A stretch of 40,901 nucleotides of DNA from an uncultured bacterium (GTDB lineage Bacteria; Auribacterota; CAZIXI01). The notes under the pieces were generated by a model, which saw nothing but the letters and a program-made list of their open reading frames with translations, had not been told where the DNA came from and searched no databases. This document shows, one piece after another, positions 1 through 40,901 of the stretch; the first letter of the stretch is position 1; each line of letters begins with the position of its first letter. Made by a program: the position numbers and the translations under genes. The stretch is from positions 1-40,901 of the forward strand of contig CAZIXI010000001.1 in assembly GCA_964543115.1 (NCBI GenBank), read 5' to 3'.

Positions 1-3000
1 CACCTTTCTTTCCTTCCATCCGCGCCACCCGGTTGGCCGCATACCACTGCGCGCTGACAAACGCTATCCCCTGAACAGCAAAAAGCAGGCCCAGCGGAAT
101 ACCCAGCAGCTGTAAGGCCGGTAAGCCTGCACTAATCGTTCCAGCGGCTATGGCCCCCTGAATAAGATTAAACACCAGTGCGCCGTACGCCGCCACCAGC
201 GGAAAACTCAAAACCCCGGCAACAATCCCGGCAATAAAGGCTAGCGGCCCCAAATACCGCTTGCGGGCCGCGCTGCCGCTGCTCAATTGAAACAGCCCAA
301 ACGCTAAAATAAAACCAATAACCAGCGCCGCGATTCCCGGCGCTAAAAACAACAGATTCGTTATCACCGCCTGTCCGGTAAAGAGTAGAAACGGGTTTAT
401 CCCGCCGGCAACAAGCATTGCCGCCATGCCAATAACGCTGATCATTCCGCCGGTTAACCCCCGGAAGAACCTTTTCTTACCGGTCATCGGCATCTTGGCC
501 GCCTGCTTAAGATCCTTGCGGCTGACCAGCAGAAAAATAAGCTGCGCGCTTACTCCGATAACACCCAGAACCGCTGTACCCACAATAAACATCGGCCCGG
601 CCACCGCTAGGGTAAAATGTGCCGTTCCCAAAAGTGACAGTAATCCCGTGCCAACCATTAAAGGCGCGAAAGTACCGATAATATTAAGAATTTTCTTTAA
701 ACTCGATACACCAGTGGCTCTAGCCACATAACCAAACCCCACCCGTTCACCAACCGTAACCGCCCGGGCCAGTTCCTTTACGCTCCGGTCAACAGCAGCC
801 GTGCGTTTAACCTGCGAACTCAACGCCCAGCCCACAATCAGGGTAAACACCGCCACAGCGCTGATAATTACCAGCCCGAAACCGCCGGCGGAAATCCCGG
901 CCAGCCAGGGACTCATCAATCTCACACCCTGCTCCACGGTGAATAACTTAAATAGCCAACCGATAATACCAATACCCACCGCGGCACTTGTAATTACCGC
1001 CAGCGAAGAAGGCAAATATTTTACCAGGGCCCGTCTTACCTTCTGAGTATTAAGTATCCGGCGCGAAGGCCCCTTCCCTTGTTCTTCGGTATGTTCAGCC
1101 GGCGGCTCGCTTAACATCTCGCGAATACCCTTAAGCATCTGGTAGAGCTCCTTATTCATCTTTTCTTCTGTTTCTATATATATATTACCTGTTATTCTCT
1201 CAATTTCCGCGTAAATCTGCTTCGGATTAATAAATTTCTTTCGAAACCCTGCGCCGGCCTGCATCTCCTGCAGCCGGTGCTTAACCCAGCCGCTTTTAGT
1301 TAAGAACACCGCGCGGGAATCATCAACCATCTTTAATGCCGCTGCTTGAAGTTTTTCAACTATTTGCTTCGCGTATTTTCCCGGATCATCACGCACTCCC
1401 TCCGCGCCTTGTTCACGGAAAACATCTATTAACCTTTCTTCTAATCCCTCCCAGTCAACACCAAACTCTCCCTCAAGCCATTTACCGGAAACAACCATTT
1501 GCCGCAGTTCCGCGTTTTGCAGTAAACGCGTACTCATAACCTCCCGCGCAAACTCACTTTCCTGCTCACCGGTTAATATCCTGTTATTCTTTATCTTCCG
1601 CCTCATCTCTTCAACAATGGTAAGGTCCCTTGATTTTTTAACCCCCAGCCTTCTCCGCAACTTAAGCTGATAGGGTTTCTCATTAGCCACTTTTCCTTTA
1701 AAATAATCAAGGTATTCCTCAATCAGCTTTTCATAGGTCACAAACACATTGTCTTCTACCGACCAGAATCCATACCACTCGCCGATCCTGCCGTCCCTGC
1801 CCACCCGACCCCGGAACTGGATATCGGTAGCATCCAATTCATCGCAGAAAGTGGATATTGCCGCCATCCGGTCCCCTTTAAAATCCACCCCTCTGCCGGA
1901 AAGGTTAGTGGAAACAATAATCGCCCGGCTGTCTATGGATATATCCTCAACAATATCCTTAATGGCATAATAATTATCCGAAGTGAATCTCACAATAATT
2001 GAATCAACATTAGCTATATCCACTCCATTAATAGAGAGTACGCGCACTTTATTTCCATCCGCGTCCCTTTCCCATTCCAGATCATACGTTCCCTCTTCAC
2101 CCGCCAAACTCTCTATATCTAATACTTGCTTACCGGCCAACTCACCTGTAATATTCTCTATAAATTCCCCGGCCTCTTTATCCGACTCCACCCTGAGCAG
2201 CACCGAACCAAAATCCTCGCCCGCGTGAACCGCCAGCGTCTTTCGCAGCGCCGCCTGCCGGGATTCATCCTTACTGCTAAAAACCTTTACCTCTTCTTTT
2301 CTTTTAGGGATTTTTCCCAGCTGCACCACCTCTTTATCGTACACCCGCTCCATAAATTCCGCATCCAGAGTAGCGCTGGCCGCGGTAAACTTTATTCCCG
2401 CCAAACCCAATACCTCCGGCAGGGTCATTGAGGCAATAGTGGGCTTATCCGCTTCCGCCCGCAGCCCGTGCTTTATCCGGATGGCGTTATCCACACCAAA
2501 ACTCCATTTCCTCCCGGGCAGTTCCCGGCCCGTGGCCCGGTCCAAGATAATCACCTCTTTCTCTTCGTCACCTTTGATTATATAATCTACTCCGCTAAGC
2601 CTCTCACCTTCCACATACTCCCCGCCCTGATAGAACACATAGGAAGTCAGGGCCAGCTGAACGAATTCCCGCCACAGATACAAATCACCGGCACTGAACG
2701 GCCGGCCTTTCTTCTGCCGGTAAACATCGCCCTCTTCCTGCTTTTCCAATATACCTTCCAATTTCATTAAACCCTCAGGAGTCAACACTACCCTTCTCGC
2801 CGATGAATCCATACTGCAAAAAATCGTATTGGGCCGGCCCTTACTGAAAAAACCATACTGTTTAATTATTTCATCCGCTGCCAGCTGCATCTGCAGCCTC
2901 TCTTCTGCCGCTTCCGTCAACTCCGCGATCTCCGCCGCGCCGGAGATAATACAGGGAGTCTGTATCTGCAGGTCCAGCGGCACATCACCTTCATCAAACA

Positions 3001-6000
3001 TGAGGAAATAATCTTGTTCCCCCAGCCTCAGCGCAATATCATCTTCTGATCTCACCGTATATAGATCCTCTTCTAATCTGTGTACAAAATTATAGGCATT
3101 AACATAAATAAGATCCGCCCGGCGATAAAGCTCCTTTTCCGTAACTTCTTCCCTAGCGCCATCCTGCCCCACAAGATAAGCCTTACGCTCACCTGCCACA
3201 GAAACAACATAGCCCACCCCGACCTCTAACAACCCCAGAACACCCGCCGCCTGCAAGGCATCTCTTTCCACCAGATTTTCTTCCGTACAAATAACCTGCT
3301 TTTCTTTCCTGCCTTTCTTCCGCTCACCTTCCAGCCATCTCAGGCAGGCAGCAGCCATAAAGGCAAAGGTCTTTCCGGCAGATGTAGGCACATTGGCCAG
3401 TTTCTCCCTGTACATCAACCGCGCCGCTCTTTTCTGATCTGCCCATTTATCATCTTTCCACACCTTTTCCAACCCTTGAGACTTAATAATCGCTTTCTTA
3501 ACCATAGCCAACGCCGTTTTTATCTCATCGGTCCCTAAACTGCCGCTTCCCGCTAATAATTCTTTCAACATAGCGAAATCAACTTCAGCTGCCCGCACCA
3601 CCGCCGAGCCTTCTTCCTCCGGCTCCTCCTCGGTCTTCATCTCCTCCCCTTCTTCCGGCTGTTCACGTAACTGTTCTATTATTCCCGCTAACATAAGTAA
3701 CTTTTCATCTATCCTGCCTAAAATTTCTCTTACCGCACTAAGATTATGCCTGTTGCGCACAATCCCTCTCGCTTCCCCTAATCCGCTTAAGACAACCTGT
3801 AATTCCTCTGCCCGTTCACGCCTGCCGGCAGGATCAATAGCGACAGGCACTGATTCAACTATCGATTCATGAATACCCTTTTCTACTTCAACTAATAACA
3901 ATTTCGCCGCTGCCAGATCCTCCTTGCTCTCCTCTTTCTTAATCCTTTCTTCTTCCTTCTTTACTTCGGCAATGCCTTTTTCCTGCGCGTCCGCCTGCTC
4001 ATATAAATGCGCTATTATCTCTTCCGGCACAAGCAGCAGTTCATCTATCTCAGTCAATGCCATATGCACTGTCTGATCATCATGCCTGTTCTGGAGCGCC
4101 CCCCTGGCCTCAACAATGCTGTTAAACATAACACCGATTTCCTGCGCCCGCTCACGTTTGCCCGCCGGATCCTCCGGCACAGGCGTTACCTTAACAATAA
4201 CTTCACGAACAGCCCTTTCTACCGCACTCTGGAAGAACGCCGCTTCGGCCAAGTCACCTGCCCTTTCTTCGGCTTCAATACCATCAGGATGGTGTTCACC
4301 TTCAACAGGTATTTCTTCCGCAACCTCCTCATCCGCGCGCCATATTTCCGGCTCTTCCCCGCCGGCAGCAAATTTACTAACAATATCCTTCAAGCCGTAT
4401 TTACCGCCATGTTTATAGGCCTCAAATAATATTGCTACCTGTTTTTCCGTCAGGTCCAGTCTTTTACCAATATCTTTTATTTTAGCGCGATGTTCTTCCA
4501 GTTGAAAAAATAAATACTCGGACCCGGAACCCACTATTTCTTTTGTGAATTCTTCCGGTTCAGTAAAATTATCATCAATCCAGGTTAATAAATATGTTAG
4601 CTCCGCTGTTTCTCCATCCAGCAATCCTGACCAGGCTTCCGCTTCCGCCCTGACCCGCATTTCCTGCCTTGCCTGGCGCAAGAAGTCGTCCCTTAACGTC
4701 ACTACTTTTTTCTTAAAAATCCTTCTTCTTTTATTATGATCTATACTCTCATCGCCTAGAATTTTTAGAATCTGCTCGTCCGCATCCTCAGTACTCAAAC
4801 CAACAACCTGCGCAAATGCCCGTACTTTTTTAGTTAATTCTTCCTTATCCAGAGACTGCGGCTCTTTCGACGAAAAAACCCTTTCCATCAACCAATCGAT
4901 CTTTTTCCTTTGTCTTTCTAACGCCCTTACCTGGACCAGCGCTTTCTGCATAAGACCGGGCCTTACCTGCCCCCTTTCCAAAACCCTTCTCAGTCCCGCT
5001 TCCCCTTGGCGGGAATAAACATAATAGAAATAACTATGACCAAAATGAGCCCGCTCTATCTGTTGATCCCTTAATCCTGATCTTCTCTCCAGGCTGATTA
5101 AACGGGACTCCATCACGCTTTCACTTCTCGTTAACATATTCATATCCGTTGTTTCTAATTGCTCCAGATCAATCGTCTCCACCAATTCTAAAATCCCATC
5201 TGCCAATCGTATTGCTGCCGGAAAATACAATTCAAGTTCACGCAGTTCCTCATTTGTCAGCGGCAATTCCCGCAGCTGCCTCTTCCTCAGCAAATATCTG
5301 ATTCCATATCCTCCTAGGACAAGCAAAATAATTCCGCCGGCCATAGTAACACCAAACCCCAGATTACCGCAGGAAGTCAGGGTCAACGCTGAAACCGCCA
5401 GTAAAATGATACTTCTGAGAACTCCTGCCGCCCGTTTTCCTACTGGACTATCCAGTAAAGATTTCTGGGCAGGGGAAATTAGCGGGAAAGGTATCGGCTG
5501 TGCTGCTTCCTCTCTCTCTACTACTTCCGGCACAATTTCTCCTTCTTCTATTACGTAGACTAACTCTCCCGGCTGTAATTCTCCCTCTTCCAGTTCCTCT
5601 AGGATTTCCACTCCTGTTGTTTCCTCATCCCTTTCCACCATAACTGACTTGGCAATGAGCCAAGAACGATAAAAATATTTCGCCACCAGCACCACGACAG
5701 CAACAGCACTACCAACACACACATATTTTAGCAGCATATCTGCCTTTGCTATCACAATATTAACTAAACTATCCATGCCCACAAGCCAGGTTATTGTTCC
5801 TAAAAACACAACCGTTACCAGAAAAACGAGCCAACGCTGTTTGTTTTTTTCTTTTCTTTCTTCCTCCGCCTTCTCTTCCCGTTTCCTCCACTCACTGGTA
5901 ACCTCCGCTAAATCCTCATTCATTTCTCCCGCAAACCACTGCTCTTCAGCCGGCTCGAATGCGGGAATCTGTTCTTCTATTTCTTCAGAAACAGGAAGCA

Positions 6001-8239
6001 GGGCCAACGGCTCACTCACCGCAGGCAGCGCGGGCGGAAGATCTTCCTCCTCCTTATCCCGGTAATGCCTGCGCCTCACCGGCCTTTTCTTGTAGGCATC
6101 CTTCTTGCCGGCATACAGCTTACGCCAGACATCCTCCGCATCTTTTTTACTAAGAAAATAAACTATTATCTTTTTGTCATCCTTACCGGTTATTTCCTTT
6201 CTGTCCATTTTCTTTCCGGCCAGTCTCCGCTTCCACCTCCTCTCTTCCCGCGGCCGCATCACCACCGCTTGAAGCTCACTGTCCTGGAAACTGAACGTAT
6301 GCGTCAGGGCCATATGGTTGGGTGAAATCTTCAGTTCATCAATCCCCGCTATTGCCTGTTGCAATTCCGCGATTAACTCTTCTGCTTCATTTGTGTCTAC
6401 ATCGATCTTCTCCCCTAAAGACACATAGGCATCCAGATTCCTGATCCACTGCTTGAGAAACTGCTTAAATTTTCGTTTTGTGTTCTTGAGGCCCTTACCA
6501 ATATTCACTGACAGAAAAATGCTATTAGCGTAGTTCTGAAATTCGGCCAGCAGCGGTTCCCTCCTTCCGGTTAAATCAGCGGGGTTTGTGAATATCACCG
6601 GATTGGCCAGGCGCTGACCTCTTTCCTGCAGGAGGCGCTCAAACGGACTTTTCACGTCCATCATCAGGTCAAGGTACTTTTTATCCAGGTCCGGCTCTAT
6701 CTTTGTTATCATTGGTGAAACAACCAAATAAGAAATATCCTTTTCTTTGAATCTATCGACAAGGCCCGCTGTGTGGAATCCGCCGGCAACCAGAAATCCC
6801 ACATCTATTTTTTCCTCATTCATCTTTTTAAAGAAATTGCTTACTATCGCCTCATCCCGCTTCAAGGCCAGGCGGTAGAACCGCTCAAACACGCTGAATT
6901 CCGGAACATTCAATTTATCCACCGCCACCGGCACCCGGCCATACTTCACTAACAGCCCGTTAGCCGCTGTTGCCAGCCTGGCAAAATCCATCTCCGCTTT
7001 ATGATCCCGGTAAAAGCCCTGCTCCTTGCGGCTGAGCTTTAAACCCGCCAGATGTTCAAGAACAATAAACGCCGTAATTAATCTATCTAGCTCATTCTGT
7101 TCCTTCTCGTTAAACAACCGTTCTTTCAAATCCTTCTCCAGCCTCTCTGATTCCGCGAACAATTCTTCGGGATTAACCTTAGCGTGCAGCTCCACAAGCT
7201 TCATATATTTTTGCAGATCCGGATAATCTTCATTCTTAAGGCCGTAATTTGTAATCAACCCTGCTAAATTCTCGTAAAAGCACTTTGCCTGGACCTTTCC
7301 CAGCCTCAACTGCAGGCTCAGCTTGATCAACCCCTGCGCCTCTTCCGTCACCATACAATCGAGTAATTGCTGAATAACAACCTGTCTCTGGGCCGCCACT
7401 TTATCCATCTCCAGGGAATTTTGTAATTCCAGAGAATCCACGGCAAACTTAATCTGCGGATACTCAGCCAGAGAAAGATTAGCAGTTTCAACATACCCCA
7501 GCAGCATATTCAGATATACCGAAAAGTCCGCCTCCCCTTTCCCGTAAGTAACAGCCACCCTGGCCAGCTTGGTTAATTCTTCCGGAAACAGCTTTTCAAT
7601 CAATCCCTCCAATCCGGTTCTCAGCTTCTTCAGGCAGGCAAGTACTACCGGCTTGGTCTCCTGCGCCTGCCGGAACACCGCCAGATTCTCTTTGTAGAGC
7701 GCTATCTCTTCAATACCGTAGAGCTCCACATTGTCCGCGGCGAAAATTGAAAAATACTCCGCGCCATTAAACAGCGCGTTTTTAAAATAGTGGTCGATAA
7801 CAATCTTTTTTACCTCCTGGTCAGGCACTGTCTTGAATCTCACTGCAGTGAGCGGCCCGCTGGCGCCCTCTACGGCAACCAGTTTCTTACCATCGTTAAA
7901 ATACATTTTCGTCAGGTGACCTAGAAGTTTCGCGTGATTAGCCTGTGCTTCGTAATTGGCGTGAGAATCCTGGATATGGATTACGATTTTCCCGTTATTT
8001 CCGCTTTGGCGCTCTTTTATCATACCGAAATCAGCCGGAACGGAAAGATCGTCAACGGAGGGAAAGGAATTCTTAATAAGAGGCATTATTTCCCGGGAAT
8101 TTTGAAGGTTGATGCTGGAAGTCCCCTGAATAGACATCGGCGTACCCTGCGCCCAGACATAGTTCTGGCAGCTAAAACATATTATTATAATATAAGTAAT
8201 AATATGAGCTAATATCCTGTATTTATTTAAAGACAACAT
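1..8239 (-). CDS. Giant polytopic membrane protein (>=2746 aa, C-terminus left of window) with an embedded SecA-like ATPase motor. Absent from the supplied ORF track.
   Basis: I translated the reverse complement by hand across the whole interval. The ATG is at 8239 (cat at 8237-8239) with GGGGGA about 9 nt upstream. There is no stop in that frame down to base 2, giving 2746 codons. The N-terminus MLSLNKYRILAHIITYIIIICFSCQNYVWAQG looks like a signal peptide or anchor. Hydrophobic segments lie at about 5660-5830 and 5290-5420, and many TM-like helices fill 2-1010. The track lists no minus-strand ORF in 1-8239, which fits a single open frame whose stop lies outside the window. Confidence 0.85.
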   Translation of the reverse strand, partial: MLSLNKYRILAHIITYIIIICFSCQNYVWAQGTPMSIQGTSSINLQNSREIMPLIKNSFPSVDDLSVPADFGMIKERQSGNNGKIVIHIQDSHANYEAQANHAKLLGHLTKMYFNDGKKLVAVEGASGPLTAVRFKTVPDQEVKKIVIDHYFKNALFNGAEYFSIFAADNVELYGIEEIALYKENLAVFRQAQETKPVVLACLKKLRTGLEGLIEKLFPEELTKLARVAVTYGKGEADFSVYLNMLLGYVETANLSLAEYPQIKFAVDSLELQNSLEMDKVAAQRQVVIQQLLDCMVTEEAQGLIKLSLQLRLGKVQAKCFYENLAGLITNYGLKNEDYPDLQKYMKLVELHAKVNPEELFAESERLEKDLKERLFNEKEQNELDRLITAFIVLEHLAGLKLSRKEQGFYRDHKAEMDFARLATAANGLLVKYGRVPVAVDKLNVPEFSVFERFYRLALKRDEAIVSNFFKKMNEEKIDVGFLVAGGFHTAGLVDRFKEKDISYLVVSPMITKIEPDLDKKYLDLMMDVKSPFERLLQERGQRLANPVIFTNPADLTGRREPLLAEFQNYANSIFLSVNIGKGLKNTKRKFKQFLKQWIRNLDAYVSLGEKIDVDTNEAEELIAELQQAIAGIDELKISPNHMALTHTFSFQDSELQAVVMRPREERRWKRRLAGKKMDRKEITGKDDKKIIVYFLSKKDAEDVWRKLYAGKKDAYKKRPVRRRHYRDKEEEDLPPALPAVSEPLALLPVSEEIEEQIPAFEPAEEQWFAGEMNEDLAEVTSEWRKREEKAEEERKEKNKQRWLVFLVTVVFLGTITWLVGMDSLVNIVIAKADMLLKYVCVGSAVAVVVLVAKYFYRSWLIAKSVMVERDEETTGVEILEELEEGELQPGELVYVIEEGEIVPEVVEREEAAQPIPFPLISPAQKSLLDSPVGKRAAGVLRSIILLAVSALTLTSCGNLGFGVTMAGGIILLVLGGYGIRYLLRKRQLRELPLTNEELRELELYFPAAIRLADGILELVETIDLEQLETTDMNMLTRSESVMESRLISLERRSGLRDQQIERAHFGHSYFYYVYSRQGEAGLRRVLERGQVRPGLMQKALVQVRALERQRKKIDWLMERVFSSKEPQSLDKEELTKKVRAFAQVVGLSTEDADEQILKILGDESIDHNKRRRIFKKKVVTLRDDFLRQARQEMRVRAEAEAWSGLLDGETAELTYLLTWIDDNFTEPEEFTKEIVGSGSEYLFFQLEEHRAKIKDIGKRLDLTEKQVAILFEAYKHGGKYGLKDIVSKFAAGGEEPEIWRADEEVAEEIPVEGEHHPDGIEAEERAGDLAEAAFFQSAVERAVREVIVKVTPVPEDPAGKRERAQEIGVMFNSIVEARGALQNRHDDQTVHMALTEIDELLLVPEEIIAHLYEQADAQEKGIAEVKKEEERIKKEESKEDLAAAKLLLVEVEKGIHESIVESVPVAIDPAGRRERAEELQVVLSGLGEARGIVRNRHNLSAVREILGRIDEKLLMLAGIIEQLREQPEEGEEMKTEEEPEEEGSAVVRAAEVDFAMLKELLAGSGSLGTDEIKTALAMVKKAIIKSQGLEKVWKDDKWADQKRAARLMYREKLANVPTSAGKTFAFMAAACLRWLEGERKKGRKEKQVICTEENLVERDALQAAGVLGLLEVGVGYVVSVAGERKAYLVGQDGAREEVTEKELYRRADLIYVNAYNFVHRLEEDLYTVRSEDDIALRLGEQDYFLMFDEGDVPLDLQIQTPCIISGAAEIAELTEAAEERLQMQLAADEIIKQYGFFSKGRPNTIFCSMDSSARRVVLTPEGLMKLEGILEKQEEGDVYRQKKGRPFSAGDLYLWREFVQLALTSYVFYQGGEYVEGERLSGVDYIIKGDEEKEVIILDRATGRELPGRKWSFGVDNAIRIKHGLRAEADKPTIASMTLPEVLGLAGIKFTAASATLDAEFMERVYDKEVVQLGKIPKRKEEVKVFSSKDESRQAALRKTLAVHAGEDFGSVLLRVESDKEAGEFIENITGELAGKQVLDIESLAGEEGTYDLEWERDADGNKVRVLSINGVDIANVDSIIVRFTSDNYYAIKDIVEDISIDSRAIIVSTNLSGRGVDFKGDRMAAISTFCDELDATDIQFRGRVGRDGRIGEWYGFWSVEDNVFVTYEKLIEEYLDYFKGKVANEKPYQLKLRRRLGVKKSRDLTIVEEMRRKIKNNRILTGEQESEFAREVMSTRLLQNAELRQMVVSGKWLEGEFGVDWEGLEERLIDVFREQGAEGVRDDPGKYAKQIVEKLQAAALKMVDDSRAVFLTKSGWVKHRLQEMQAGAGFRKKFINPKQIYAEIERITGNIYIETEEKMNKELYQMLKGIREMLSEPPAEHTEEQGKGPSRRILNTQKVRRALVKYLPSSLAVITSAAVGIGIIGWLFKLFTVEQGVRLMSPWLAGISAGGFGLVIISAVAVFTLIVGWALSSQVKRTAAVDRSVKELARAVTVGERVGFGYVARATGVSSLKKILNIIGTFAPLMVGTGLLSLLGTAHFTLAVAGPMFIVGTAVLGVIGVSAQLIFLLVSRKDLKQAAKMPMTGKKRFFRGLTGGMISVIGMAAMLVAGGINPFLLFTGQAVITNLLFLAPGIAALVIGFILAFGLFQLSSGSAARKRYLGPLAFIAGIVAGVLSFPLVAAYGALVFNLIQGAIAAGTISAGLPALQLLGIPLGLLFAVQGIAFVSAQWYAANRVARMEGKKG
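1740..3400 (-). other. SecA-like motor domain (NBD1, preprotein-crosslinking-like insert, NBD2) inside the giant ORF
   Basis: The following motifs occur in SecA order. Walker A VPTSAGKTF (3362-3391). ICTEENLVERD (cf. SecA VTVNDYLAxRD). LMFDEGD (DEGD at 2984-2995, cf. DEVD) followed by TPCIISG (cf. TPLIISG). VVLTPEGL. DYIIKG..EVIILDRATGRELPGRKWSFGVDNAIRIKHG (cf. DYIV.DGEV.IVDE.TGR..GRR.S.GLHQA.EAKEG). PTIASMT (cf. QTLASIT). IIVSTNLSGRGVDF (1880-1915, cf. TIATNMAGRGTDI). QFRGRVGRDGRIG (cf. QLRGRSGRQGD). Confidence 0.8.
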
Positions 8240-9492: not shown

Positions 9493-9516
9493 AGCCACCA
9501 CCTCCGTGTTAAATTT

Positions 9517-22939: not shown

Positions 22940-22940
22940 T

Positions 22941-22968: not shown

Positions 22969-23024
22969 TTAAACATATTCTCTATTACTCATATTTTACC
23001 AGGCCGCAGGCCGCTATTATTTAT

Positions 23025-25957: not shown

Positions 25958-26273
25958 AAAGAACCTTGCCCTTAGCTAAAACTTGCTGAATAAAACTATC
26001 TCCAAGAAGCCTTCTCTGCTCTAGTTCCTCCGGGGTATATACCAAAATATCAAGTGGTAAGTCTGTATCCAAACAGCACCTGACCTCATATGTCCTTTTA
26101 AAATAATCCTTTTTAGTTGATTTGACAATCATCAGGTCTATATCGCTATCCTTGCCAAATCGCCCCTGAGCGGCACTTCCGAACACCAATATCTTTTCAG
26201 GATTATAATTTCTACTAATCTGATCAACAATCTGCTTAATTTGTGTCATTAAGTTATTATTTTCAGCTTTCAT
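25947..26273 (-). CDS. Minimal nucleotidyltransferase (MNT) antitoxin-type protein
   Basis: 108 aa. ILVFGSAAQGRFGKDSDIDLMIV is the GS-x(9-10)-D-x-D nucleotidyltransferase motif. GAAGGAG RBS. Confidence 0.85.
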   Translation of the reverse strand: MKAENNNLMTQIKQIVDQISRNYNPEKILVFGSAAQGRFGKDSDIDLMIVKSTKKDYFKRTYEVRCCLDTDLPLDILVYTPEELEQRRLLGDSFIQQVLAKGKVLYEK

Positions 26274-28131: not shown

Positions 28132-28253
28132 GGCGTTGCTCCCTTTTACACTGTATCCTTTTTATATAATTTACCAATTTTCAGGTATATTGGCAAATGT
28201 TTTTCGTACTCAGTGATATCGGGAACAACACCTGAAAGAACACAGAAAAACCG

Positions 28254-28301
28254 GGTGACCTGCCCCCAAAAAACTGGTACAACTATTGGGGACAGGTCAC
28301 C
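28254..28301 (-). terminator. Hairpin followed by a T-run on the minus strand (intrinsic-terminator-like)
   Basis: ggtgacctgcccc (28254-28266) pairs with ggggacaggtcacc (28288-28301), with one bulge and a 21-nt loop. On the minus strand the hairpin is followed by CGGTTTTTCTGTG. Confidence 0.45.
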
Positions 28302-28364
28302 AAAAGAACACCTTTTTTCCTTATATCTTCACTATAATCCACAAAGAACCGCAGATATTAATAT

Positions 28365-28379
28365 TCAAGAATCGTGCCA
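28365..28379 (-). promoter_or_regulatory. Sigma54-like element with degenerate -12 half
   Basis: The minus strand reads TGGCAC-gattc-TTGA. Its flanks are homologous to the consensus promoter at 32831-32845. Confidence 0.35.
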
Positions 28380-28510
28380 GAATTAAAAACAGGCAGAAAA
28401 CTTACGTATACTCTTGCGGCATAAATTCCTGGCGGGATAAACAGCCTGGAGAGACATGAAAAATTCGTTATAATTATGAAGTTAATACGAGAAGACAAAC
28501 GAATTAACTC

Positions 28511-29863: not shown

Positions 29864-29901
29864 CTTACTCTCCGGGTATAATTACATTTGATTAATGTAA
29901 A

Positions 29902-30000
29902 GTCAGCCATAATACAGGCACAAATTGTGCCAAGGTCAGCTATATTTTTACATATTATTGTGTTATAGTCAACTATATTTATTATTCCTCCAGAACGGTT
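29902..30000. repeat. Three degenerate direct repeats phased exactly 33 nt apart
   Basis: GTCAGCCATAATA at 29902, GTCAGCTATATTT at 29935 and GTCAACTATATTT at 29968. Units 1 and 2 also share ATTGTG at the same offset. Unit 1 contains the palindrome GGCACAaatTGTGCC. Confidence 0.55.
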
Positions 30001-30275
30001 TCATAATTTAAAACTAGATAATTGATATAAGTGTTTGCGTTTATAGGAGATATATACACAACTCGCTATCTTAGGCAGGTAAAATTTCCTGGACAATAAT
30101 TAACATTTTATATTTTCCAGGAAATATTAAAGTATTACTTTACTATTTCATGTGGCAATTATTAGCTACCATAAAATCATCCATTCTATAAACGTACTGC
30201 ATTGATAATGAATAATATATAATAGTCTAAAGATACCCCCTTGCTATCGGAATTCCAACACAGTCTTACCGTTTC

Positions 30276-32830: not shown

Positions 32831-32845
32831 GCAATAATCGTGCCA
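32831..32845 (-). promoter_or_regulatory. Sigma54 (-24/-12) promoter for the kinase-like/methyltransferase gene
   Basis: The minus strand reads TGGCAC-gatta-TTGC, an exact consensus match. It lies 42 nt upstream of the ATG at 32789, with AAGGTG as the RBS. The initial transcribed sequence TTGCGAATAGAAAGG resembles TTGCGTATTAGAAACAGG at the 19310 promoter. Confidence 0.7.
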
Positions 32846-32995: not shown

Positions 32996-35900
32996 TTACG
33001 CGGAATGTTCAGTCGCTAACGCCTTTTCCAATGACTCTACATTAACCCTGGGCACCGGCGGCGCGCTCCAACCGCCATTAATATTCTGTTTCGGCATGAA
33101 AATTTCATAGCCATCACCAATCTTGGCCTTCAGCATTTCCCGTACTCTCTTTTCTACCACGCGCGGATCGCCGCCGGAATTGAGTACCAGGTAAAACGCC
33201 TCACTCAGTGACTGCTGTACGAATTGCGCCTCCACACCCTCAATAGCGCTTTCCAATACAACCGCCTTCACCGCGCCCACAACTATTTCCATAAACTGCG
33301 CTACCCAGTTACTGGGATTATCAACAAATACCAACTCAACCGTATCTTCAGTCTTTATCTGTTTCTTGATACTCTCTAAAACAGTCAGCTTATTCTTTTC
33401 CACATCTTCCCGCACCTGTTTTGTCCTCACCAGGCCGGCGTATAATTCACTCTGCTGGCCTAGCAGCAGGTTAATTATCTGTTCTTCACTTACCGGCAGT
33501 TCATCATCCTTCATATTCACAAACGCGAACTTCACGTCAATCTCTACCTTCCGGCCCCTGATTTCCTGCTCTAAACCCCTAAGGCTCCTGGCCTGGGCCG
33601 CTATCTGCAGGCCCTTCATAGTCAATTGCGCCTTTCCGTCAGGTCCAAGCTTAATCAGGCTGGGCGCGTCTAACACATACACCATCGTCCCGCTCCAGGG
33701 TTTCTCAGGCATTTCACCCAGCTCACTTAACCCGCCCTGGAAGATGTCCCGGCCCGCCTGATCCGCCGCCAACTGCACCTGATCGCTAACCGGCATCTTC
33801 TTCGTCTTCTGCACGAAGCTCACCTTTTTATAATCGCCTTTAGCGGTCCTCGCACCCAGCTCGATCTTCCGGGGATCAAATCCAAATTTCTCGGCATTGG
33901 CAATGGTCAAGGCCGCGATATCCAGGAAGCCCAATTGCGTCAGCAAATCAACAAACTCTTTATCCCGGCCGCTCTTCGTCAATTCAAATTCAATGCCCAG
34001 TTTCTGATGGGTAAACACAGGACTGGCAGCATCACCTAAACCCAAATTCTCCACAAAATCTGCCAGCACTTCTTCCCAGACAGACGGCTGCAAGTCATAA
34101 TATTTATCGGCAAATAGATTAGGGAAGAACTTTTCCTGTACATCTTTAGAGGTAAGAATAATCTCCATTATCCTGCTCAGGGCCCTGCGCTCTGCCTCCG
34201 TGCCGTTTCTGGCAATATCATAGATACGCGTATGCACACCTTCATGCACCACACTTCTAAATGTCTTTTCCGCACTTAATTTGCCGGACACAACCGCCGT
34301 CCCGTCACTCAAGGTCCAGCCACTAAATTCTGCCGGAACCTTACCGGTATTAACTTTCTCCTTCAGCAACTGATCCACCCTCTGCCGCACTGGTTCCGCC
34401 GCCCGTGCTTCCGGCTTAAGGAAAGACACAACCGCTCCCGGCGCCGGCATACTTACCGGCAACAACACGGGCGCTAGACCTTTCTCTTCTGTCACCTCTA
34501 CGTCCTTCCGCGCCTCGGCATAGACAGACTGCATCTGTTGCATCGCCCGATCGATTTTTCCGTAATCAGGCATCAATCCCTGAACTTCTTCATCTACTTC
34601 ACTTGGCTCCCGCAACAGCGCGATAATCTCTTCATTGGTATAGACATCCATCAGTTCAGCGCAAATTGCCTGTGTCAGCTCCAGATAATCCATCTCCATT
34701 ATATTCCCATACTGTTCATAACAGGATTCCAGATACTTCCGGAGACTGAAAGCCACGAACTTCTCTCCAATATCAACACAAATCGGATCTTGTTTATAAA
34801 CCCGTTTTCCAGCAACCCGGCTGGCTTCTGTATCAACAATAAATTTGGTGTTTTCTTCATTACGGTCATCCGGATAGATCAAATTACCTTCAAGATTATA
34901 CATTCTCTTAGCGATCCGCACCCAGAGCCGGGTCAACGCCACTAAGTTTTCCTCTTTAAACTGGTCCGCTGCTATTAAGTCATGAACATCATCCCCGTCA
35001 ATCCATTCTTCAAAGAACTGCCGTTTACCCTGACTCTCGCTTTCCCAACCGTAAACCGGCACCAAGCCACTGCCGGATAATTTCTGCAAGCGTTCCAATT
35101 CAATATCCGATATCTTGCCCTTAACACCGGCAACATCCTTTTCTATCTTTAACGCCGCGAAAAGCACCTCCATTTTCTTGCCGCCGGTTAGAGTGAATAC
35201 TACCCGGTAAACATCCTTCTGCGTACCGCTCTTCTCAAAAGAAAGAGCCATCTCCCTAATATCAGCCAGGTCAATATCCAACTGATACTTTTCCCGGACA
35301 AATCTGATAAAATCATCCGTATTCTTCTCCAATTCAACCCGGACACTGACCAATGCCTCGTGCGTCGACTGAATAATGCTCTCGTAAGTACGCCCGTCTT
35401 CCCAGACTAGGACACCGGCTTCATTTACGCGGCACTGACTCTTTACTGATTCAGGGAAGACCGCCTGACCGCTGATTTTCTGAATCAAATCCCGTTTGCC
35501 AATAAAAGCAATTTTACCCTCAACATAATCGGCAAAGATCCGGGCCGGATCATTTGGATGTTCACTAATAAGCGAATGGAGATAATCAATATCACCTTCC
35601 GCTACTGCTTGATCCACAATAAACTTCAAGAACTCACTCGGCTGGCCTTTTTCAGCAAACGCCCACAATGCCTGCGAGGCCTGGGCATGGGTCTTGCCAT
35701 TCTGCAACTCCTGCCATTCATGATCAATGCGTTCGGCCAGTAAAGCAACCGCGCCTTCTCTGATAATCTTATTCCATAAAGCCTTAGTAACATAAATCTG
35801 AACCTTATCTCCCACCTTCTTCCCGTAAAAATACACCATATTGCTTACACCAGCCGCTCCCGCGCGCTGAGCGAACCCTAACTGGCTGCCCTGATCAACC

Positions 35901-38900
35901 GTCAGCACCTCCACATTACTGACGTCAAACGCCGTTTCACCTTCAGCTGGCGGCGCCCGTTCCTCAATCTGCCTGATTCTCGCTGCCGCCTGATCAATCG
36001 CTTGCTGCTCACTAACAACCTGTGCCCCTTTATCCGCAATAATAGTGTCAACATATTCAGCCACACCCGCCAGATCCTCACTCGCCCAGGTGGCGCCCGG
36101 CGCCTTACTGGTCACCCCTGGCAACGTCGGCGCTTCCGGAGCGGTAATCACCGGAAGAGTAGGCGCTTCCCTGCTTATTACCCCCTCAGCCTCCGCCAAT
36201 GCCTGCTCCTGCTCCAGCTCATCCCGCTGCAACCGTGCCAATAGGCCTGTAAATTCTTGTTTCCGCTCTTCCGGTGCTATTTCCTGAGCCTGTAACAATA
36301 TATTTTTTGCCTCAACTAATTCATCCAGCTGATAGTGGAGTATTCCAATACTCTTTAAGACTCCCCATTTTTCCTCCGCCGGCGCCAAATCAGCAGCTTC
36401 CTGCAATTTGGCCATTCCCTTCTCTACATCTCCCTCTGAAGACAATATATCACCCAGACTCCTCAGTACGTTCCATTTGTTTTCCTCCGATACAATGGTT
36501 TCCGCCTTTTCCAGCACGGCAATCGCTTCCGCTACCTTCCTCTGCGCTCTCAGCACAACAGCTAAATTCACAAAATTAGCCCAGCTGTCTTCACCTTCCA
36601 GGGCAATACATTCATTGAAAATCTGCTCCAATTTAACCGCGTCATGTATGGTCTGTTCTTGCCAATATACATTAACTAAGGCTTGTAACTGCTGCAAGAC
36701 TGCTGCCTCATTGCCTTCCAGAGTTTTCATTTGCTCAACTTGTGCCCAAATACCATCAAACACCTCATTGGCCTCAGCCGGCTTATTCATCCTAACTAAG
36801 GTTTCTAACAGTTTCAGCTGAACCTGCGTATTGCCTTCCTCAGCCACCGCCTCCTGCCCGGCCAGTGACTGCAATTTCACAAGCATCTCATCTGAGCGCT
36901 TGCCGTCACTATCCTTTAATCCCTGGGCAACCTCCGCGTAGATGCCCGCCTGCTCAACAGCACTTTTCTTTCCCACAGCCTCTGAACTTGCATAAGCATA
37001 CACCTGCAACCAATCTCCCTGTTGTTTATGCACCCTGAACAGCTGTGCATCTACCGCCGCTATGCTGGCCTGCTGATTTTGCAGTTGAGGATTGGCAATC
37101 AATAAATCCTTAGCCTGCTGTAGCACACCAGCAGCCTTCGCTAACAGCACCTGATCCTCTCCGGCCTTTTCCACTGCCTTACCGGCAATCTGCTGATAGC
37201 GCTGCACCCTGTCAGAAACATCCTCTATAGCGTCAGCCATTTTCATCGCCTTATCTACATCACCTTGTTCCACCGCGGATTCAAACACTATTTTGTCAGC
37301 CTGCTCTTTTTCCTGACTGAACAGCGCCTTTAATCTGTCGTCAGACAATGTATCTATATTAGCCAGGATCTCTGTAGCCTGTTTAACCGACATCCCCTCG
37401 GCCTGCATCTGCATCTGCATCACTCGGGACATCGCCGTCTGCTGATCCATCTGCCCCGATTCCATCTGCTGCCTCAAGTCCGCCATCTCTTTTTCCATCG
37501 CCTTTTCCGCACCTGTCTGTAATTCCATAAGTGACTGTTTTACCGCTGCCATCTTTTCCATATCCTGCTGAGTAACCGAATACCCCAGCGCATTCAATAC
37601 TCCGGTCAATGCCCTTACATAACTCACAGCATTATTAGCATCCGCCTGGCTTAACCCCTTAAACGCCGCTGCCAAAGCGACATTATCCTTTGTGCGCATT
37701 CCAATAAGTTCACGGTCATAATTTCTATCTGCAACCAGTAGACCCACTGCCGCAAAAACTGTTTCCCTCACCTGACTGTCATTGGTGGTTAACAACAATT
37801 GGATGTACCCTTCAGCAAGCTCTTTCGGCCCGGCTAAACGCTTACTCTCGCGAATAGCCTTCACCGTACTATAAGTACCCAAAGCAGCACCGACAGCCAA
37901 TGCGCCCAGGGTAAACAACCCAGAACTTATTACGCCCGCACCCATCAGGCTCAGCGCGCCAACAGACACACCCAATTTCACCGCCGGATGCTTGAGCACC
38001 TCCAGTTGTGCCGCTTTTTCCGCACCCTCGGGAGTCTCAAACATCTTTGCTATCCTGGTACCGGCAAATTTCTGCGCAACCAAACCCTTGATTACATTTG
38101 TTACCCCGCCGCTTTGCTTCAACTGTAATCTGATCCTGGCAACAGTTGATGTCTCCGCCTTTTTCTGCAGCTTGGCCAATTCCGCTTTTTCCTCTTTCTG
38201 CTTAACTATATTTCCCCTGACCACCTGAGCTATTTCAACCTTCGTCCGGACCTCCGGCTGATCAATACCCTGAACCGCAGCTTCAACCTTCTCAATAACC
38301 GTTTTCATCTCCACCACATCTTGATCCTTACCAGTATACTCCGCCACTTTAGTAGAAATAGTCTGCGCCCTATCGGTCTGCCCGCTGGCAACATACAGCT
38401 GCGCCAGCACAACCAGCGAATCAATATTTGTTGCCATTACATTTACCTCAGCCAAATTATCCTCAGTAACTCCAACACTGCTCAATAAATCCGCCTCCGC
38501 AATCTCCATTGCTGCGGCCTCCTGTGCCTGGCCATTGGCCAAGTAAGCGCGTGCCAGCACCATATTCTGCTCTTCTGTCCGATCTTCAACCTGCGCCAGC
38601 GCTGTTGCTGCCTTATCATAGTTACCTTTCTGCAGATTATTTTCAGCTTTTAAGGTCACATTGTCCGGCTGAAGAGCAAACTGCAGGGCCTGATAAGAAT
38701 CTATATCACTCATCGCAGCTTTCATTTCTTCCGGATCTTTTTCCTGCTGTAAATTTTTAACTTGTTCTTCTGCCCAGGAAGCTACATCTCCCTGCGTCTC
38801 AGCTGTCATAAGCTGGCCGGCAATCTTATGCGCCGCCTCATCACTGGCCGTTTGAATACCTAATAAGTTTTTCACCAACGCTTGACTGAACACTGCAGTG

Positions 38901-40901
38901 ATTTCTTGCTCTTCCCCCTCCCTAATATCTCCGAATATCCCGTCTGCCGAGGCTATGCCAGTAACAAAACCAGACTGTAGCTCCTGATTTTTCGGGAAGA
39001 ATTCCGCGACCATACTTCTTATTTCACTGATCCTCTCTCGTTCCTTCTTACTATAGGTCGGCAGCAAGATGTCCGCCATCCCTTCTTCCCCTAGATTTTC
39101 AAAACTCATAATTCCTTTCTCTGCCTCTTTCAGCGCCTCTTTCTTTTCCTTTAATTGTTTATCTAATTTACGCATCTCTTTGCCTGCTTTGCGTTGACTC
39201 ACAGTACCTACTTGAAGCTTATACTGCTGCTCCCGCATTTCAGCTTCAATCTCACCTTTTTCTCTAGTCAAATTCACTGCCTGAGTGATTGTTTCTGCCG
39301 GAAGTGCCTGCTGAACTTTCTGTTTATCGGCAGCATCACCGTTCTCCAATATCCAGCCAGCCAGCTGTACTCCGGGCGCGGAAGAATTCAAAATATCCAG
39401 AAACACTCCCCCGCTCATACTAGCAGCAATACCGTAATCCTGCAGATTAGTGGCCAAAGTCACTACCTGGATAAAATCTGTTTCCGGTTGCTGCAACAAT
39501 TCATTAACCGCGGTTTGAATGCTTTCCGGCAGCTTGGCAGCAACCTTACCCCAATCACCCGAACTAAAATTCTTTATCCGAGTTATCTTGTCACTAGTTA
39601 TAAAAGGATCTATCTTCTTAAGAACTGACTCCAGATCTGCTCCATTGTCCTGGCAGAGTTGCTGAATCATTGTCACTGCCTCAATAGAATTTGTCGGCTC
39701 TGCTTTGCCTAAGACATTACCTAAGGCCAAGAATACTGCTTTTTCTTCTCCTTTTTCATCAGTGGCACTCTCTGCCAAGCTGCTTATCCAAGTAGGAACA
39801 ATGGCCAAAGAAGCATTACCGCGGGCAATAAATGTTTGGGCAAGAATATCCATAGATACACCCTTTTCTTGTAAACGATTCACCGCTTTTTCCCCGCCGA
39901 CTTTCCGCACGGCCTCAGTTAACGCTTCGGCTTTTGTCTTGACCGTCACCGCAGTCTCCTTGGCCCCCAGCGTGGCCTTGGAAGGAAGGATATCGCTGGC
40001 TAAGGTTTTTACAACACTGATTACATACTCTACTCCACCCTCCTGCGGCACACGGGCCAGGGACTTTTCCGGCATCTTGGCAGCCTCGATACTGTCCCAG
40101 GTTTTTTTATTGGTTACATCTATCTCCAGTTCCGCTGCCCGCTTATTGGCATAGGAACGCACTTCTTTTAATTTTCTGTTAGTGCCAATCTCCGTCCATA
40201 ACCTCTGCGCGGTTCTAATGGCGTTGTTCAGCATATTCTGGGCAATCTCTTCCGGCGAACGGTATTCTTTGGCGGTGAATATATCATCAGATTCCCCTTC
40301 CCCGCTGTTCAGCCGGTCCAGCATTTTCTCTAATATCTTCACTTCTGCACATTCCGCTCCCTTCATCTCTGTCAGTATCATGATCATCTCTTTTACCGGT
40401 TCTTTAAACAACTTACCCAGCACCTCACTGGAGATCTTAAACTCTGTGGAACTGCTCTTATCCACCAGGCCCATAAACCGAGCGTTAGCCTCCAGGCTGT
40501 TTAATAGTGCCTCTCCCGCCTCCCCTTTCGCCTTTTGGATTGTAAACTTCTGTAATTGGTCTGTAACCTCCATAAACTCCTCACTCATCGTTAACTCATT
40601 AGTCTTCATGAAGTTCCGCATTTTCAGGGCCTGCTGGCGAGTTTCTCCCAATGCCTTCATATCAAAGTGCAAATGCCGCATAGTCTCTTTTCCGCTTCTT
40701 CCCGCCCTGCCCAGAGCTTGTAATAGCAGATCACGGTTCATGGTATGGGCATCCAGAATTAACAGATTTATAGTAATTTTCTCTTTCGCCTTACCTGTAA
40801 CACCTTCCGGTGCTTCCGAGGCAAAATCCAGGCCCCGCATACCCAGATCAGTGGCCAACACTATCCGCCCACCATGCAAGCCGGCCTTGCCGGCAACTGT
40901 T
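32996..40901 (-). CDS. Giant multidomain protein (>=2634 aa in window, N-terminus right of window): SecA-type NBD2 end, TM hairpin, TPR-like repeats, kinase-like module and HExxH motif
   Basis: The track ORF is 32996..40879, but the 'M' at 40879 is an in-frame TTG. The frame stays open to 40900 (TVAGKAGLHGGRIVLATDLGMRGLDF). Stop at 32996. Confidence 0.9.
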   Translation of the reverse strand, partial: TVAGKAGLHGGRIVLATDLGMRGLDFASEAPEGVTGKAKEKITINLLILDAHTMNRDLLLQALGRAGRSGKETMRHLHFDMKALGETRQQALKMRNFMKTNELTMSEEFMEVTDQLQKFTIQKAKGEAGEALLNSLEANARFMGLVDKSSSTEFKISSEVLGKLFKEPVKEMIMILTEMKGAECAEVKILEKMLDRLNSGEGESDDIFTAKEYRSPEEIAQNMLNNAIRTAQRLWTEIGTNRKLKEVRSYANKRAAELEIDVTNKKTWDSIEAAKMPEKSLARVPQEGGVEYVISVVKTLASDILPSKATLGAKETAVTVKTKAEALTEAVRKVGGEKAVNRLQEKGVSMDILAQTFIARGNASLAIVPTWISSLAESATDEKGEEKAVFLALGNVLGKAEPTNSIEAVTMIQQLCQDNGADLESVLKKIDPFITSDKITRIKNFSSGDWGKVAAKLPESIQTAVNELLQQPETDFIQVVTLATNLQDYGIAASMSGGVFLDILNSSAPGVQLAGWILENGDAADKQKVQQALPAETITQAVNLTREKGEIEAEMREQQYKLQVGTVSQRKAGKEMRKLDKQLKEKKEALKEAEKGIMSFENLGEEGMADILLPTYSKKERERISEIRSMVAEFFPKNQELQSGFVTGIASADGIFGDIREGEEQEITAVFSQALVKNLLGIQTASDEAAHKIAGQLMTAETQGDVASWAEEQVKNLQQEKDPEEMKAAMSDIDSYQALQFALQPDNVTLKAENNLQKGNYDKAATALAQVEDRTEEQNMVLARAYLANGQAQEAAAMEIAEADLLSSVGVTEDNLAEVNVMATNIDSLVVLAQLYVASGQTDRAQTISTKVAEYTGKDQDVVEMKTVIEKVEAAVQGIDQPEVRTKVEIAQVVRGNIVKQKEEKAELAKLQKKAETSTVARIRLQLKQSGGVTNVIKGLVAQKFAGTRIAKMFETPEGAEKAAQLEVLKHPAVKLGVSVGALSLMGAGVISSGLFTLGALAVGAALGTYSTVKAIRESKRLAGPKELAEGYIQLLLTTNDSQVRETVFAAVGLLVADRNYDRELIGMRTKDNVALAAAFKGLSQADANNAVSYVRALTGVLNALGYSVTQQDMEKMAAVKQSLMELQTGAEKAMEKEMADLRQQMESGQMDQQTAMSRVMQMQMQAEGMSVKQATEILANIDTLSDDRLKALFSQEKEQADKIVFESAVEQGDVDKAMKMADAIEDVSDRVQRYQQIAGKAVEKAGEDQVLLAKAAGVLQQAKDLLIANPQLQNQQASIAAVDAQLFRVHKQQGDWLQVYAYASSEAVGKKSAVEQAGIYAEVAQGLKDSDGKRSDEMLVKLQSLAGQEAVAEEGNTQVQLKLLETLVRMNKPAEANEVFDGIWAQVEQMKTLEGNEAAVLQQLQALVNVYWQEQTIHDAVKLEQIFNECIALEGEDSWANFVNLAVVLRAQRKVAEAIAVLEKAETIVSEENKWNVLRSLGDILSSEGDVEKGMAKLQEAADLAPAEEKWGVLKSIGILHYQLDELVEAKNILLQAQEIAPEERKQEFTGLLARLQRDELEQEQALAEAEGVISREAPTLPVITAPEAPTLPGVTSKAPGATWASEDLAGVAEYVDTIIADKGAQVVSEQQAIDQAAARIRQIEERAPPAEGETAFDVSNVEVLTVDQGSQLGFAQRAGAAGVSNMVYFYGKKVGDKVQIYVTKALWNKIIREGAVALLAERIDHEWQELQNGKTHAQASQALWAFAEKGQPSEFLKFIVDQAVAEGDIDYLHSLISEHPNDPARIFADYVEGKIAFIGKRDLIQKISGQAVFPESVKSQCRVNEAGVLVWEDGRTYESIIQSTHEALVSVRVELEKNTDDFIRFVREKYQLDIDLADIREMALSFEKSGTQKDVYRVVFTLTGGKKMEVLFAALKIEKDVAGVKGKISDIELERLQKLSGSGLVPVYGWESESQGKRQFFEEWIDGDDVHDLIAADQFKEENLVALTRLWVRIAKRMYNLEGNLIYPDDRNEENTKFIVDTEASRVAGKRVYKQDPICVDIGEKFVAFSLRKYLESCYEQYGNIMEMDYLELTQAICAELMDVYTNEEIIALLREPSEVDEEVQGLMPDYGKIDRAMQQMQSVYAEARKDVEVTEEKGLAPVLLPVSMPAPGAVVSFLKPEARAAEPVRQRVDQLLKEKVNTGKVPAEFSGWTLSDGTAVVSGKLSAEKTFRSVVHEGVHTRIYDIARNGTEAERRALSRIMEIILTSKDVQEKFFPNLFADKYYDLQPSVWEEVLADFVENLGLGDAASPVFTHQKLGIEFELTKSGRDKEFVDLLTQLGFLDIAALTIANAEKFGFDPRKIELGARTAKGDYKKVSFVQKTKKMPVSDQVQLAADQAGRDIFQGGLSELGEMPEKPWSGTMVYVLDAPSLIKLGPDGKAQLTMKGLQIAAQARSLRGLEQEIRGRKVEIDVKFAFVNMKDDELPVSEEQIINLLLGQQSELYAGLVRTKQVREDVEKNKLTVLESIKKQIKTEDTVELVFVDNPSNWVAQFMEIVVGAVKAVVLESAIEGVEAQFVQQSLSEAFYLVLNSGGDPRVVEKRVREMLKAKIGDGYEIFMPKQNINGGWSAPPVPRVNVESLEKALATEHSA
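34232..34246 (-). other. HExxH motif (possible zinc metallopeptidase site)
   Basis: The minus strand reads CAT GAA GGT GTG CAT, encoding HEGVH in the context FRSVVHEGVHTRIYD. Confidence 0.35.
34650..35260 (-). other. Protein-kinase-like module in giant ORF 3, paralogous to that of the 837-aa protein
   Basis: VLFAALKIEK, FFEEWIDGDD, LIYPDDRNEENTKF (34850-34872) and PICVDIGEKF (34758-34790). The order and spacing match FALKVAI, YTEDWVDGP, SDVQPENVMF and VCVDIGK in the 837-aa ORF. Confidence 0.6.
37865..37985 (-). other. Predicted TM hairpin in giant ORF 3
   Basis: AVKLGVSVGALSLMGAGVISSGLFTLGALAVGAALGTYSTV is a roughly 40-residue Gly/Ala-rich hydrophobic stretch flanked by charged residues. 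Confidence 0.6.
40640..40900 (-). other. SecA-like NBD2 C-terminal motifs
   Basis: AGKAGLHGGRIVLATDLGMRGLDF corresponds to SecA AQAG..G.VTIATNMAGRGTDI. INLLILDAHTMNRDLLLQALGRAGRSGKETMRHLHFDMKAL corresponds to [42 protein letters not shown]. Confidence 0.7.

Follow-up and report, generated by a model that had tools for sequence, protein, structure and literature searches.

A probable, very divergent SecA-like motor in a truncated giant protein of an uncultured Auribacterota bacterium

Giant transmembrane (TM) proteins carrying divergent SecA_DEAD and SecA_PP_bind domains have been described in Omnitrophota and other phyla (West-Roberts et al. 2023, bioRxiv 10.1101/2023.11.21.568195). These proteins have no recognizable scaffold or wing domains and are encoded near secretion and carbohydrate genes, and the same study proposed that the SecA domain exports the giant itself or accessory proteins. 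A cluster of 20 proteins with a PF07517 architecture has also been reported among long Omnitrophota proteins (2026 preprint, bioRxiv 10.64898/2026.06.07.730766). Bacterial proteins can run from thousands up to tens of thousands of residues in length, and the way in which such chains are synthesized, inserted, and exported is an open question, for which the main lead comes from SecA-like motors fused to them. Here, we analyzed a stretch of 40,901 nucleotides (nt) from an uncultured Auribacterota bacterium (GenBank assembly GCA_964543115.1, contig CAZIXI010000001.1, positions 1 to 40,901; hereafter, the window), which contains a giant open reading frame (ORF) on the minus strand at each end. The ORF at the left end (giant 1) fits the description of West-Roberts et al., and the ORF at the right end, which is the main subject of this report (hereafter, the target), represents such giants in a more divergent form.

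The target shares with the published giants a very long ORF (at least 2,634 amino acids [aa]), TM segments (a hairpin at aa 973–1012), and an internal SecA-like motor, and the neighboring genes include a pseudopilin gene, of secretion or pilus type, and a glycoside-hydrolase-like gene; no GspD, GspE, or GspF gene was found in the window. However, the motors of the published giants are detected with PF07517 and PF01043, whereas those of the target family are not, and a long conserved helix follows the motor in the target family. Furthermore, the published work focused on proteins of 30 thousand aa or more, whereas the target and its relatives fall in the range of 2–6 thousand aa, and the relatives that could be located belong to metagenome-assembled genomes (MAGs) of Elusimicrobia.

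The target occupies a minus-strand frame of 2,634 codons at 32996–40900, which terminates with a stop codon at 32996–32998 and is open at the right edge of the window (nt 40900), so that the N-terminus of the protein is missing. An NCBI protein of 2,621 aa, for which an internal start was called (P0001), is identical to the target, and its contig of 41,917 bp extends only about 1 kb beyond the window, leaving no room for what is missing of the gene. Searches for a contig that would extend P0001 or the gene downstream of the target gave no result; genome and metagenome scans with the target identified no close relative, and an A1-based metagenome scan was likewise negative. We consider it probable that the target encodes the C-terminal part of a multidomain giant anchored in the membrane (2,634 residues of it at least), and that the missing N-terminal part carries a very divergent SecA-like ATPase. 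An earlier note, made from the letters of this DNA, had described a giant ORF starting in-window with two SecA-type motifs, and the open frame and both quoted motifs are indeed present. The features at this edge are as follows.

39914..40897, minus strand (aa 2–329): end of nucleotide-binding domain (NBD) 2 and the conserved helical post-motor region, corresponding to the C-terminal third of the motor, from a leave-out profile, the alignment with the relative P0002, and family alignment A3
nt 40823–40858, minus strand (aa 15–26): superfamily 2 (SF2)/SecA motif V, LATDLGMRGLDF, with R22 invariant in A3
nt 40664–40720, minus strand (aa 61–79): QALGRAGRSGKETMRHLHF, the second motif quoted in the earlier note, from the translation
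nt 40694..40720, minus strand (aa 61–69): motif VI, QALGRAGRS, with Q61, G64, R65, and R68 invariant in A3
40391..40459, minus strand: post-motor motif KSxSxxFK...E....L.KEP, with K148, S151, F154, K155, E159, and K166 invariant in A3

In motif VI, the target has Q where the HRxGRxGR of DEAD-box proteins has H, and both catalytic arginines are kept. The comparisons below support the assignment of the edge motifs to motifs V and VI of the NBD2 of a large ATPase module, the remainder of which lies outside the window.

In a word-indexed search of 5.8 billion proteins, the sole relative besides the identical P0001 was P0002, which comes from a JGI metagenome and has 3,575 aa or more, being cut by the end of its own contig. 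P0002 aligned with target aa 11–332 with 32% identity (E = 3e-36) and, upstream of the aligned region, contains a Walker A motif (GMGGGKT, aa 447) and IDEADV (aa 563). A HMMER scan of 1.84 billion cluster representatives, for which the query profile combined P0002 positions 380–1330 with the target edge, returned 36 proteins at E ≤ 1e-3 (counted as clusters at 50% identity), many of them 2–6 thousand aa in length and many of them fragments; canonical SecA was absent from these matches. Both halves of the module were collinear in 14 of the 36 proteins. The alignment of these 14 relatives (A2) revealed the module order GxGKT/S, DEADVxALSR, an insert of ~200 residues, FGGSAT, and NBD2 (motif V, xxRaxdF; motif VI, LLQAxGRxGR), followed by a conserved helical region with KSxSIxFK...KEP and then a terminal LPxE. 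GK, DE, and the G..T of motif III were nearly invariant among them, and the Q and R of motif VI were invariant. When a leave-out profile was built from 12 motors, with the target and P0002 excluded, it matched target aa 2–329 at E = 7.6e-48 (scaled to Z = 1.84 billion proteins) over profile positions 552–874 of 876. Because this alignment begins at position 552 of 876, the window starts about two thirds of the way into a module of ~850–950 residues. This module defines a small family, mostly of proteins of 2–6 thousand aa or fragments, in uncultured bacteria. The earlier view that the edge carries a motif V/VI pair and that the rest of the motor lies off-window was thus borne out, in that the 14 full-length relatives always have Walker A, DEAD, the ~200-aa insert, and motif III upstream of the pair. 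By homology, Walker A and B of the target should lie approximately 550–650 residues upstream of the window.

Searches against domain databases yielded few matches. Pfam matched only tetratricopeptide repeats (TPRs) in the target and nothing in P0002, and NCBIfam had no match in the target. For the 14 family motors, Pfam reported a weak Helicase_C in seven and detected neither SecA_DEAD nor SecA_PP_bind (PF01043); a 4,570-aa Elusimicrobium homologue also had a weak Helicase_C only. In sequence searches of the PDB, with single sequences as well as profiles, neither the target edge nor the P0002 motor nor a motif III segment had a match.

The predicted structure points more specifically to SecA. 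The motor of the family member P0003, modeled with AlphaFold2 from a 14-sequence alignment, had a predicted local distance difference test score (pLDDT) of 75.6 and a predicted template modeling score (pTM) of 0.76. When this model was compared with the PDB using Foldseek, structures of SecA and SecA2 took all of the first 26 places, with E-values of 2e-13 to 5e-7 over ~950 aligned columns, and the best TM-scores (0.41–0.49) were those of SecY-bound SecA (6itc and 5eul). The first non-SecA matches were Brr2, Hel308, XPD, and DinG, which appeared from 1.8e-6 or weaker (1e-6 to 1e-5).

The topology of the module is also informative. In SecA, motifs II and III of NBD1 are separated by a preprotein cross-linking domain (PPXD), whereas only ~25–30 aa lie between these motifs in DEAD-box proteins. 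The relatives of the target have an insert of ~200 aa between DEAD and motif III, with no PF01043 match, and, judging from the established architecture of SecA, it would occupy the same topological site as the PPXD. Directly after NBD2, the P0003 model contains a 48-residue helix (701–748), which holds the KSxSxxFK...KEP motif and is a candidate scaffold-like helix, possibly equivalent to the helical scaffold domain (HSD) of SecA. A helical region after NBD2 is also present in the target (aa ~85–329), with no SecA_SW match in Pfam.

The family resembles SecA and SecA2 in its pair of RecA-like NBDs, which hold Walker A, DExD, motif III, and motifs V/VI, in the large insert that separates motifs II and III of NBD1, and in the helical stretch, including one long helix, that follows NBD2. 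These two proteins are the best structural matches of the P0003 motor model in the PDB. It differs from them in that no SecA HMM matches it at any threshold, in that no wing domain or C-terminal tail is detectable, and in that the module sits within proteins of several thousand residues, where it is followed by TM hairpins and unrelated cargo. Taken with the model, this leads us to conclude that the module, although it appears SecA-like in fold and topology, falls outside the SecA sequence family. The label "SecA-type" in the earlier note can accordingly be kept at the level of fold and topology, where the P0003 model and its top 26 PDB matches place it, and must be given up at the level of sequence, where no SecA HMM matches.

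Several observations weigh against reading the missing N-terminal part as a SecA-like motor. The hidden Markov models (HMMs) of SecA (PF07517, PF01043, and PF21090 of Pfam and those of NCBIfam, including TIGR00963) matched none of the family members tested, namely the target, P0002, and the 14 motors. When the family profile was compared with PDB sequences, the DEAD-box proteins DDX42 and Prp28 (5e-4 to 1e-3) ranked slightly above SecA (7e-3), with the matches confined to NBD2, and the NBD1 half yielded nothing significant against PDB sequences. The Foldseek TM-scores are modest overall (0.33–0.49), and the structural model is that of P0003, a relative 26% identical to the target, and not of the target itself. 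The PPXD-like insert and the HSD-like long helix are both candidate assignments. Finally, the N-terminal two thirds of the target's own motor lie off-window and were not retrieved, so its Walker A and B motifs are predicted from those of the relatives.

Downstream of the motor, the target contains the following features.

38306..38668, minus strand (aa ~745–865): TPR block 1 (Pfam TPR_19, 5.5e-7; ANAPC3; TPR_4)
nt 37865–37984, minus strand (aa 973–1012): Gly/Ala-rich hydrophobic hairpin, AVKLGVSVGALSLMGAGVISSGLFTLGALAVGAALGTYST, from a hydropathy scan
36221..36598, minus strand (aa ~1435–1560): TPR block 2 (Pfam TPR_2, 6e-9; TPR_19; TPR_8; TPR_14; TPR_12)
36092..36178, minus strand (aa 1575–1603): Pro-rich linker, ISREAPTLPVITAPEAPTLPGVTSKAPGA, read from the translation
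34721..35248, minus strand (aa ~1885–2060): putative kinase-like segment, from motifs identified by eye only
34232..34246, minus strand (aa 2219–2223): single HExxH motif (HEGVH)

The hydropathy scan of the target revealed one Gly/Ala-rich hydrophobic stretch, which probably consists of two short TM helices with SSG between them and coincides with the TM hairpin that the earlier note had placed at 37865–37985. In 17 family members, including the target, a hydrophobic segment or hairpin occurs 236–851 residues after the module. The TPR-like repeats reported earlier were recovered as well: three W..L..G units at aa 1439, 1475, and 1511 (nt 36344–36586), spaced by 36 aa, fall inside TPR block 2, and block 1 adds a second array. 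The Pro-rich linker is followed by ~1,000 residues without detectable relatives. Within this region, the HExxH motif described earlier occurs once, in a protein in which His accounts for only 0.7% of the residues, and HExxH was found in only 1% of shuffled sequences; no peptidase family in Pfam matched the region, and HEGVH represents a possible zincin-type site. On the other hand, the kinase-like module proposed in the earlier note could not be substantiated. The segment has no match in Pfam, NCBIfam, or PDB sequences, and a single-sequence AlphaFold model of aa 1601–2634 had a pLDDT of 36.6, which makes it unusable for either the kinase-like or the HExxH module; what is left is a by-eye resemblance of candidate K (FAALKIEKD), E (ELERLQKL), D..N (YPDDRNEEN), and D (VDIGEKF) motifs.

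A phmmer search with aa 330–2634 against all the family members and related loci gave no match, nor did a tblastn search for homologues of the cargo against plasmids. Because aa 330–2634 have no match within the family, what its members have in common is the motor and the membrane segment, not the cargo. In the target, this cargo comprises two TPR arrays, helical sequence, the Pro-rich linker, and ~1,000 orphan residues with one HExxH, and it is non-homologous across the family.

These features suggest a mechanism by analogy with SecA. The motor would consist of two RecA-like domains, with the ~200-residue insert in the first located at the site of the preprotein-binding domain of SecA. It is probably active, because its catalytic motifs are conserved among members that are only 20–36% identical. 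Its substrate is most likely a polypeptide, which it would grip and move as SecA does; nucleic-acid unwinding would be an unlikely function for it. The motor would then drive the insertion or export of segments of the giant or of its partners, perhaps at SecYEG, a role also proposed for the Pfam-detectable SecA domains of giant proteins (West-Roberts et al. 2023). The ATPase would lie in the cytoplasm and the two-helix hairpin would bring the chain back to the same side, and most of the in-window protein is for this reason probably cytoplasmic and membrane-tethered; the kinase-like module, if real, would suit the cytoplasmic side. A bolder version of this idea is that the family constitutes an unrecognized sister lineage of SecA, in which a self-contained unit of NBD1, PPXD-like insert, NBD2, and scaffold-like helix cannot be seen by current profile HMMs and is fused in cis to membrane hairpins and freely exchangeable cargo. 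Such a unit, present in Elusimicrobia MAGs and other uncultured bacteria independently of the Pfam-detectable SecA_DEAD giants, one of which lies on this contig, would serve as a built-in engine for the insertion or export of the giant itself or of dedicated partners. We put this version forward tentatively and regard it as rather unlikely.

A different account of the same architecture is that the SecA-like module is a relic or a regulatory ATP switch, and that the protein is a cytoplasmic, membrane-tethered TPR scaffold with enzymatic modules, in which the motor would take no part in translocation and would govern only assembly or conformation. The two-helix hairpin would keep every in-window domain in the cytoplasm, the TPR arrays suggest scaffolding between proteins, and conservation of the motor does not extend to the cargo, all of which would suit such a scaffold. 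However, a conserved module of ~850 residues is not expected of a relic, and the retention of GK, DE, and the motif VI Q/R at 20–36% identity indicates selection for ATP hydrolysis. We therefore consider this account doubtful.

The motor might instead be that of a nucleic-acid SF2 helicase, of the DEAD-box, Ski2, or DinG/XPD type, which acts on RNA or DNA within a large scaffold protein. The sequence searches lean slightly in this direction: Pfam detects Helicase_C only, weakly and in seven of 14 members, and DDX42 and Prp28 are marginally ahead of SecA in the PDB profile search (5e-4 to 1e-3 versus 7e-3). DEAD-box RNA helicases also share NBD2 motifs V/VI, the DEAD Walker B, and the SAT of motif III with the family, and Brr2, Hel308, XPD, and DinG are among the Foldseek matches at 1e-6 to 1e-5. 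Nevertheless, these sequence matches are limited to the universal NBD2 motifs, whereas in the structural comparison, which favors SecA, all the top 26 matches are SecA or SecA2, ahead of any helicase, and DEAD-box proteins rank far below. The family also departs from DEAD-box helicases in its ~200-aa insert between motifs II and III, compared with the ~25–30 aa generally known for the latter, in its QxxGRxGR motif VI, in which Q replaces the DEAD-box H, and in its consistent membrane tethering. A helicase acting on nucleic acid is thus distinctly unlikely. That the edge motifs are a chance resemblance in a merely long helical or repeat protein can hardly be entertained, because, even though the edge region has no Pfam match and BLASTP detects no significant similarity between the giants (E = 0.29), the P0002 alignment (E = 3e-36) and the leave-out profile (E = 7.6e-48 across 328 residues) rule it out. 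The reading that we prefer remains that of a giant, membrane-anchored protein with a very divergent SecA-like ATPase.

The second giant in the window provides a direct comparison.

2..8239, minus strand: giant 1, with Met at ~8239, running off the left edge (ORF, Pfam, NCBIfam, and TM scan)

Giant 1 has a signal-peptide-like N-terminus and, according to the TM scan, TM clusters at aa 822–1002 and 2427–2747+. Its SecA-like motor (aa ~1588–2190) was detected by Pfam (SecA_DEAD, 6e-11; SecA_PP_bind, 8e-8; Helicase_C, 5e-4) and by the NCBIfam SecA models (1.5e-22 to 1.4e-9), with scores far under the full-length cut-offs of the latter. Like the target, giant 1 is a very large TM protein that carries a SecA-like motor internally; the two are encoded on the same strand of the same contig and have alignable motifs V/VI, but SecA_DEAD, SecA_PP_bind, and the NCBIfam SecA models detect giant 1 and not the target family. 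The earlier note had suggested that the two giants belong to a paralogous family with a shared mechanism. This suggestion was not sustained, in that only the universal motifs V/VI align between the motors: BLASTP of giant 1 against the target gave E = 0.29 over these motifs, hhalign of giant 1 against the target family gave probabilities of 32% over NBD1 and 43% over motifs V/VI, and the target-family HMM had no match to giant 1 at E ≤ 10. Recent paralogy is ruled out by these three results. The motors of the two giants both appear SecA-like but come from different sequence families, and they are paralogous only at superfamily depth.

The target family thus represents a second motor family beside the Pfam-detectable motors of giant proteins, and because it is invisible to sequence HMMs, surveys based on PF07517 undercount such motors. 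The motor and hairpin together resemble a portable unit, to which completely variable cargo is attached. The family comprises just 36 clusters at 50% identity, a size at which targeted structural and biochemical studies are feasible. The present locus is itself of limited value, given that the gene is truncated and its function is inferred only.

Family members were also found in three Elusimicrobia MAGs in a scan with an alignment of the P0009 cluster (A4). In an uncultured Elusimicrobium (L002, 38–16379), the 4,570-aa motor-family giant adjoins an 874-aa Pfam-dark ORF, and at another locus (L003, 1017–20908), a motor-family giant of >4,650 aa adjoins a 2,047-aa Pfam-dark ORF, which suggests that giant genes travel in tandem in Elusimicrobia MAG contigs as well.

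The other features of the window are as follows.

9058–9549, minus strand: pseudopilin (N_methyl and SBP_bac_10/DUF1559; Pfam)
9559–15087, minus strand: 1,842-aa protein combining FG-GAP repeats with a GH42-like beta-galactosidase domain (Pfam)
20295–21710: sigma-54 activator response regulator
22571–22981, minus strand: stand-alone gene of the PD-(D/E)XK_3 nuclease family (Pfam, 2.5e-43), between a FecR-like gene and a histidine kinase gene
23025–25574: CHASE2-GGDEF-histidine kinase
25565–25957, minus strand: HEPN protein (Pfam HEPN, 3e-24)
25947–26273, minus strand: minimal nucleotidyltransferase (GSAAQG...DSDIDL)
26540–28131: PqiA- and MlaD-like genes
28511–29863: AAA_14/DUF4143 ATPase
30276–32789, minus strand: 837-aa protein with a signal-peptide-like N-terminus, MHNKIISLVIAIVFLWQNTVAAA, with no Pfam family and a faint methyltransferase-like similarity at aa 600–780
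8317–8331 (minus strand), 19310–19324 (plus strand), 28365–28379 (minus strand), 29918–29932 (minus strand), and 32831–32845 (minus strand): five intergenic, correctly oriented sigma-54-type sites

The pseudopilin gene lies directly downstream of the 1,842-aa FG-GAP/GH42-like gene, and both are directly upstream of giant 1. With the pseudopilin, the FG-GAP/GH42-like protein, and giant 1, whose SecA motor Pfam detects, the neighborhood matches the published giant-gene loci. No rRNA or tRNA genes were found in the window. The HEPN and nucleotidyltransferase genes overlap (25565–26273) and form a HEPN/MNT toxin–antitoxin module. Between the target and the downstream gene for the 837-aa protein lie 206 bp, and an exact sigma-54-type site 42 nt upstream of the latter gives it a sigma-54-like promoter of its own. 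Another such site is located ~80 nt upstream of the start of giant 1. In total, the sigma-54-type consensus TGGCAC-N5-TTGC (≤1 mismatch) occurs at seven sites in the window, compared with 2.3 expected, and none of 100 shuffles reached seven. Judging from these sites, together with the sigma-54 activator and the CHASE2-GGDEF-histidine kinase encoded in the window, the locus may be regulated by sigma-54.

The window also varies in base composition. The GC content is 0.38–0.40 in a patch at 28000–31000, which contains the AAA_14/DUF4143 ATPase gene, compared with 0.45–0.50 elsewhere, and this patch may be acquired DNA. Along the minus-strand giants, the GC skew of the plus strand is −0.25 to −0.39, and the coding strands of the giants are therefore markedly richer in G than in C.

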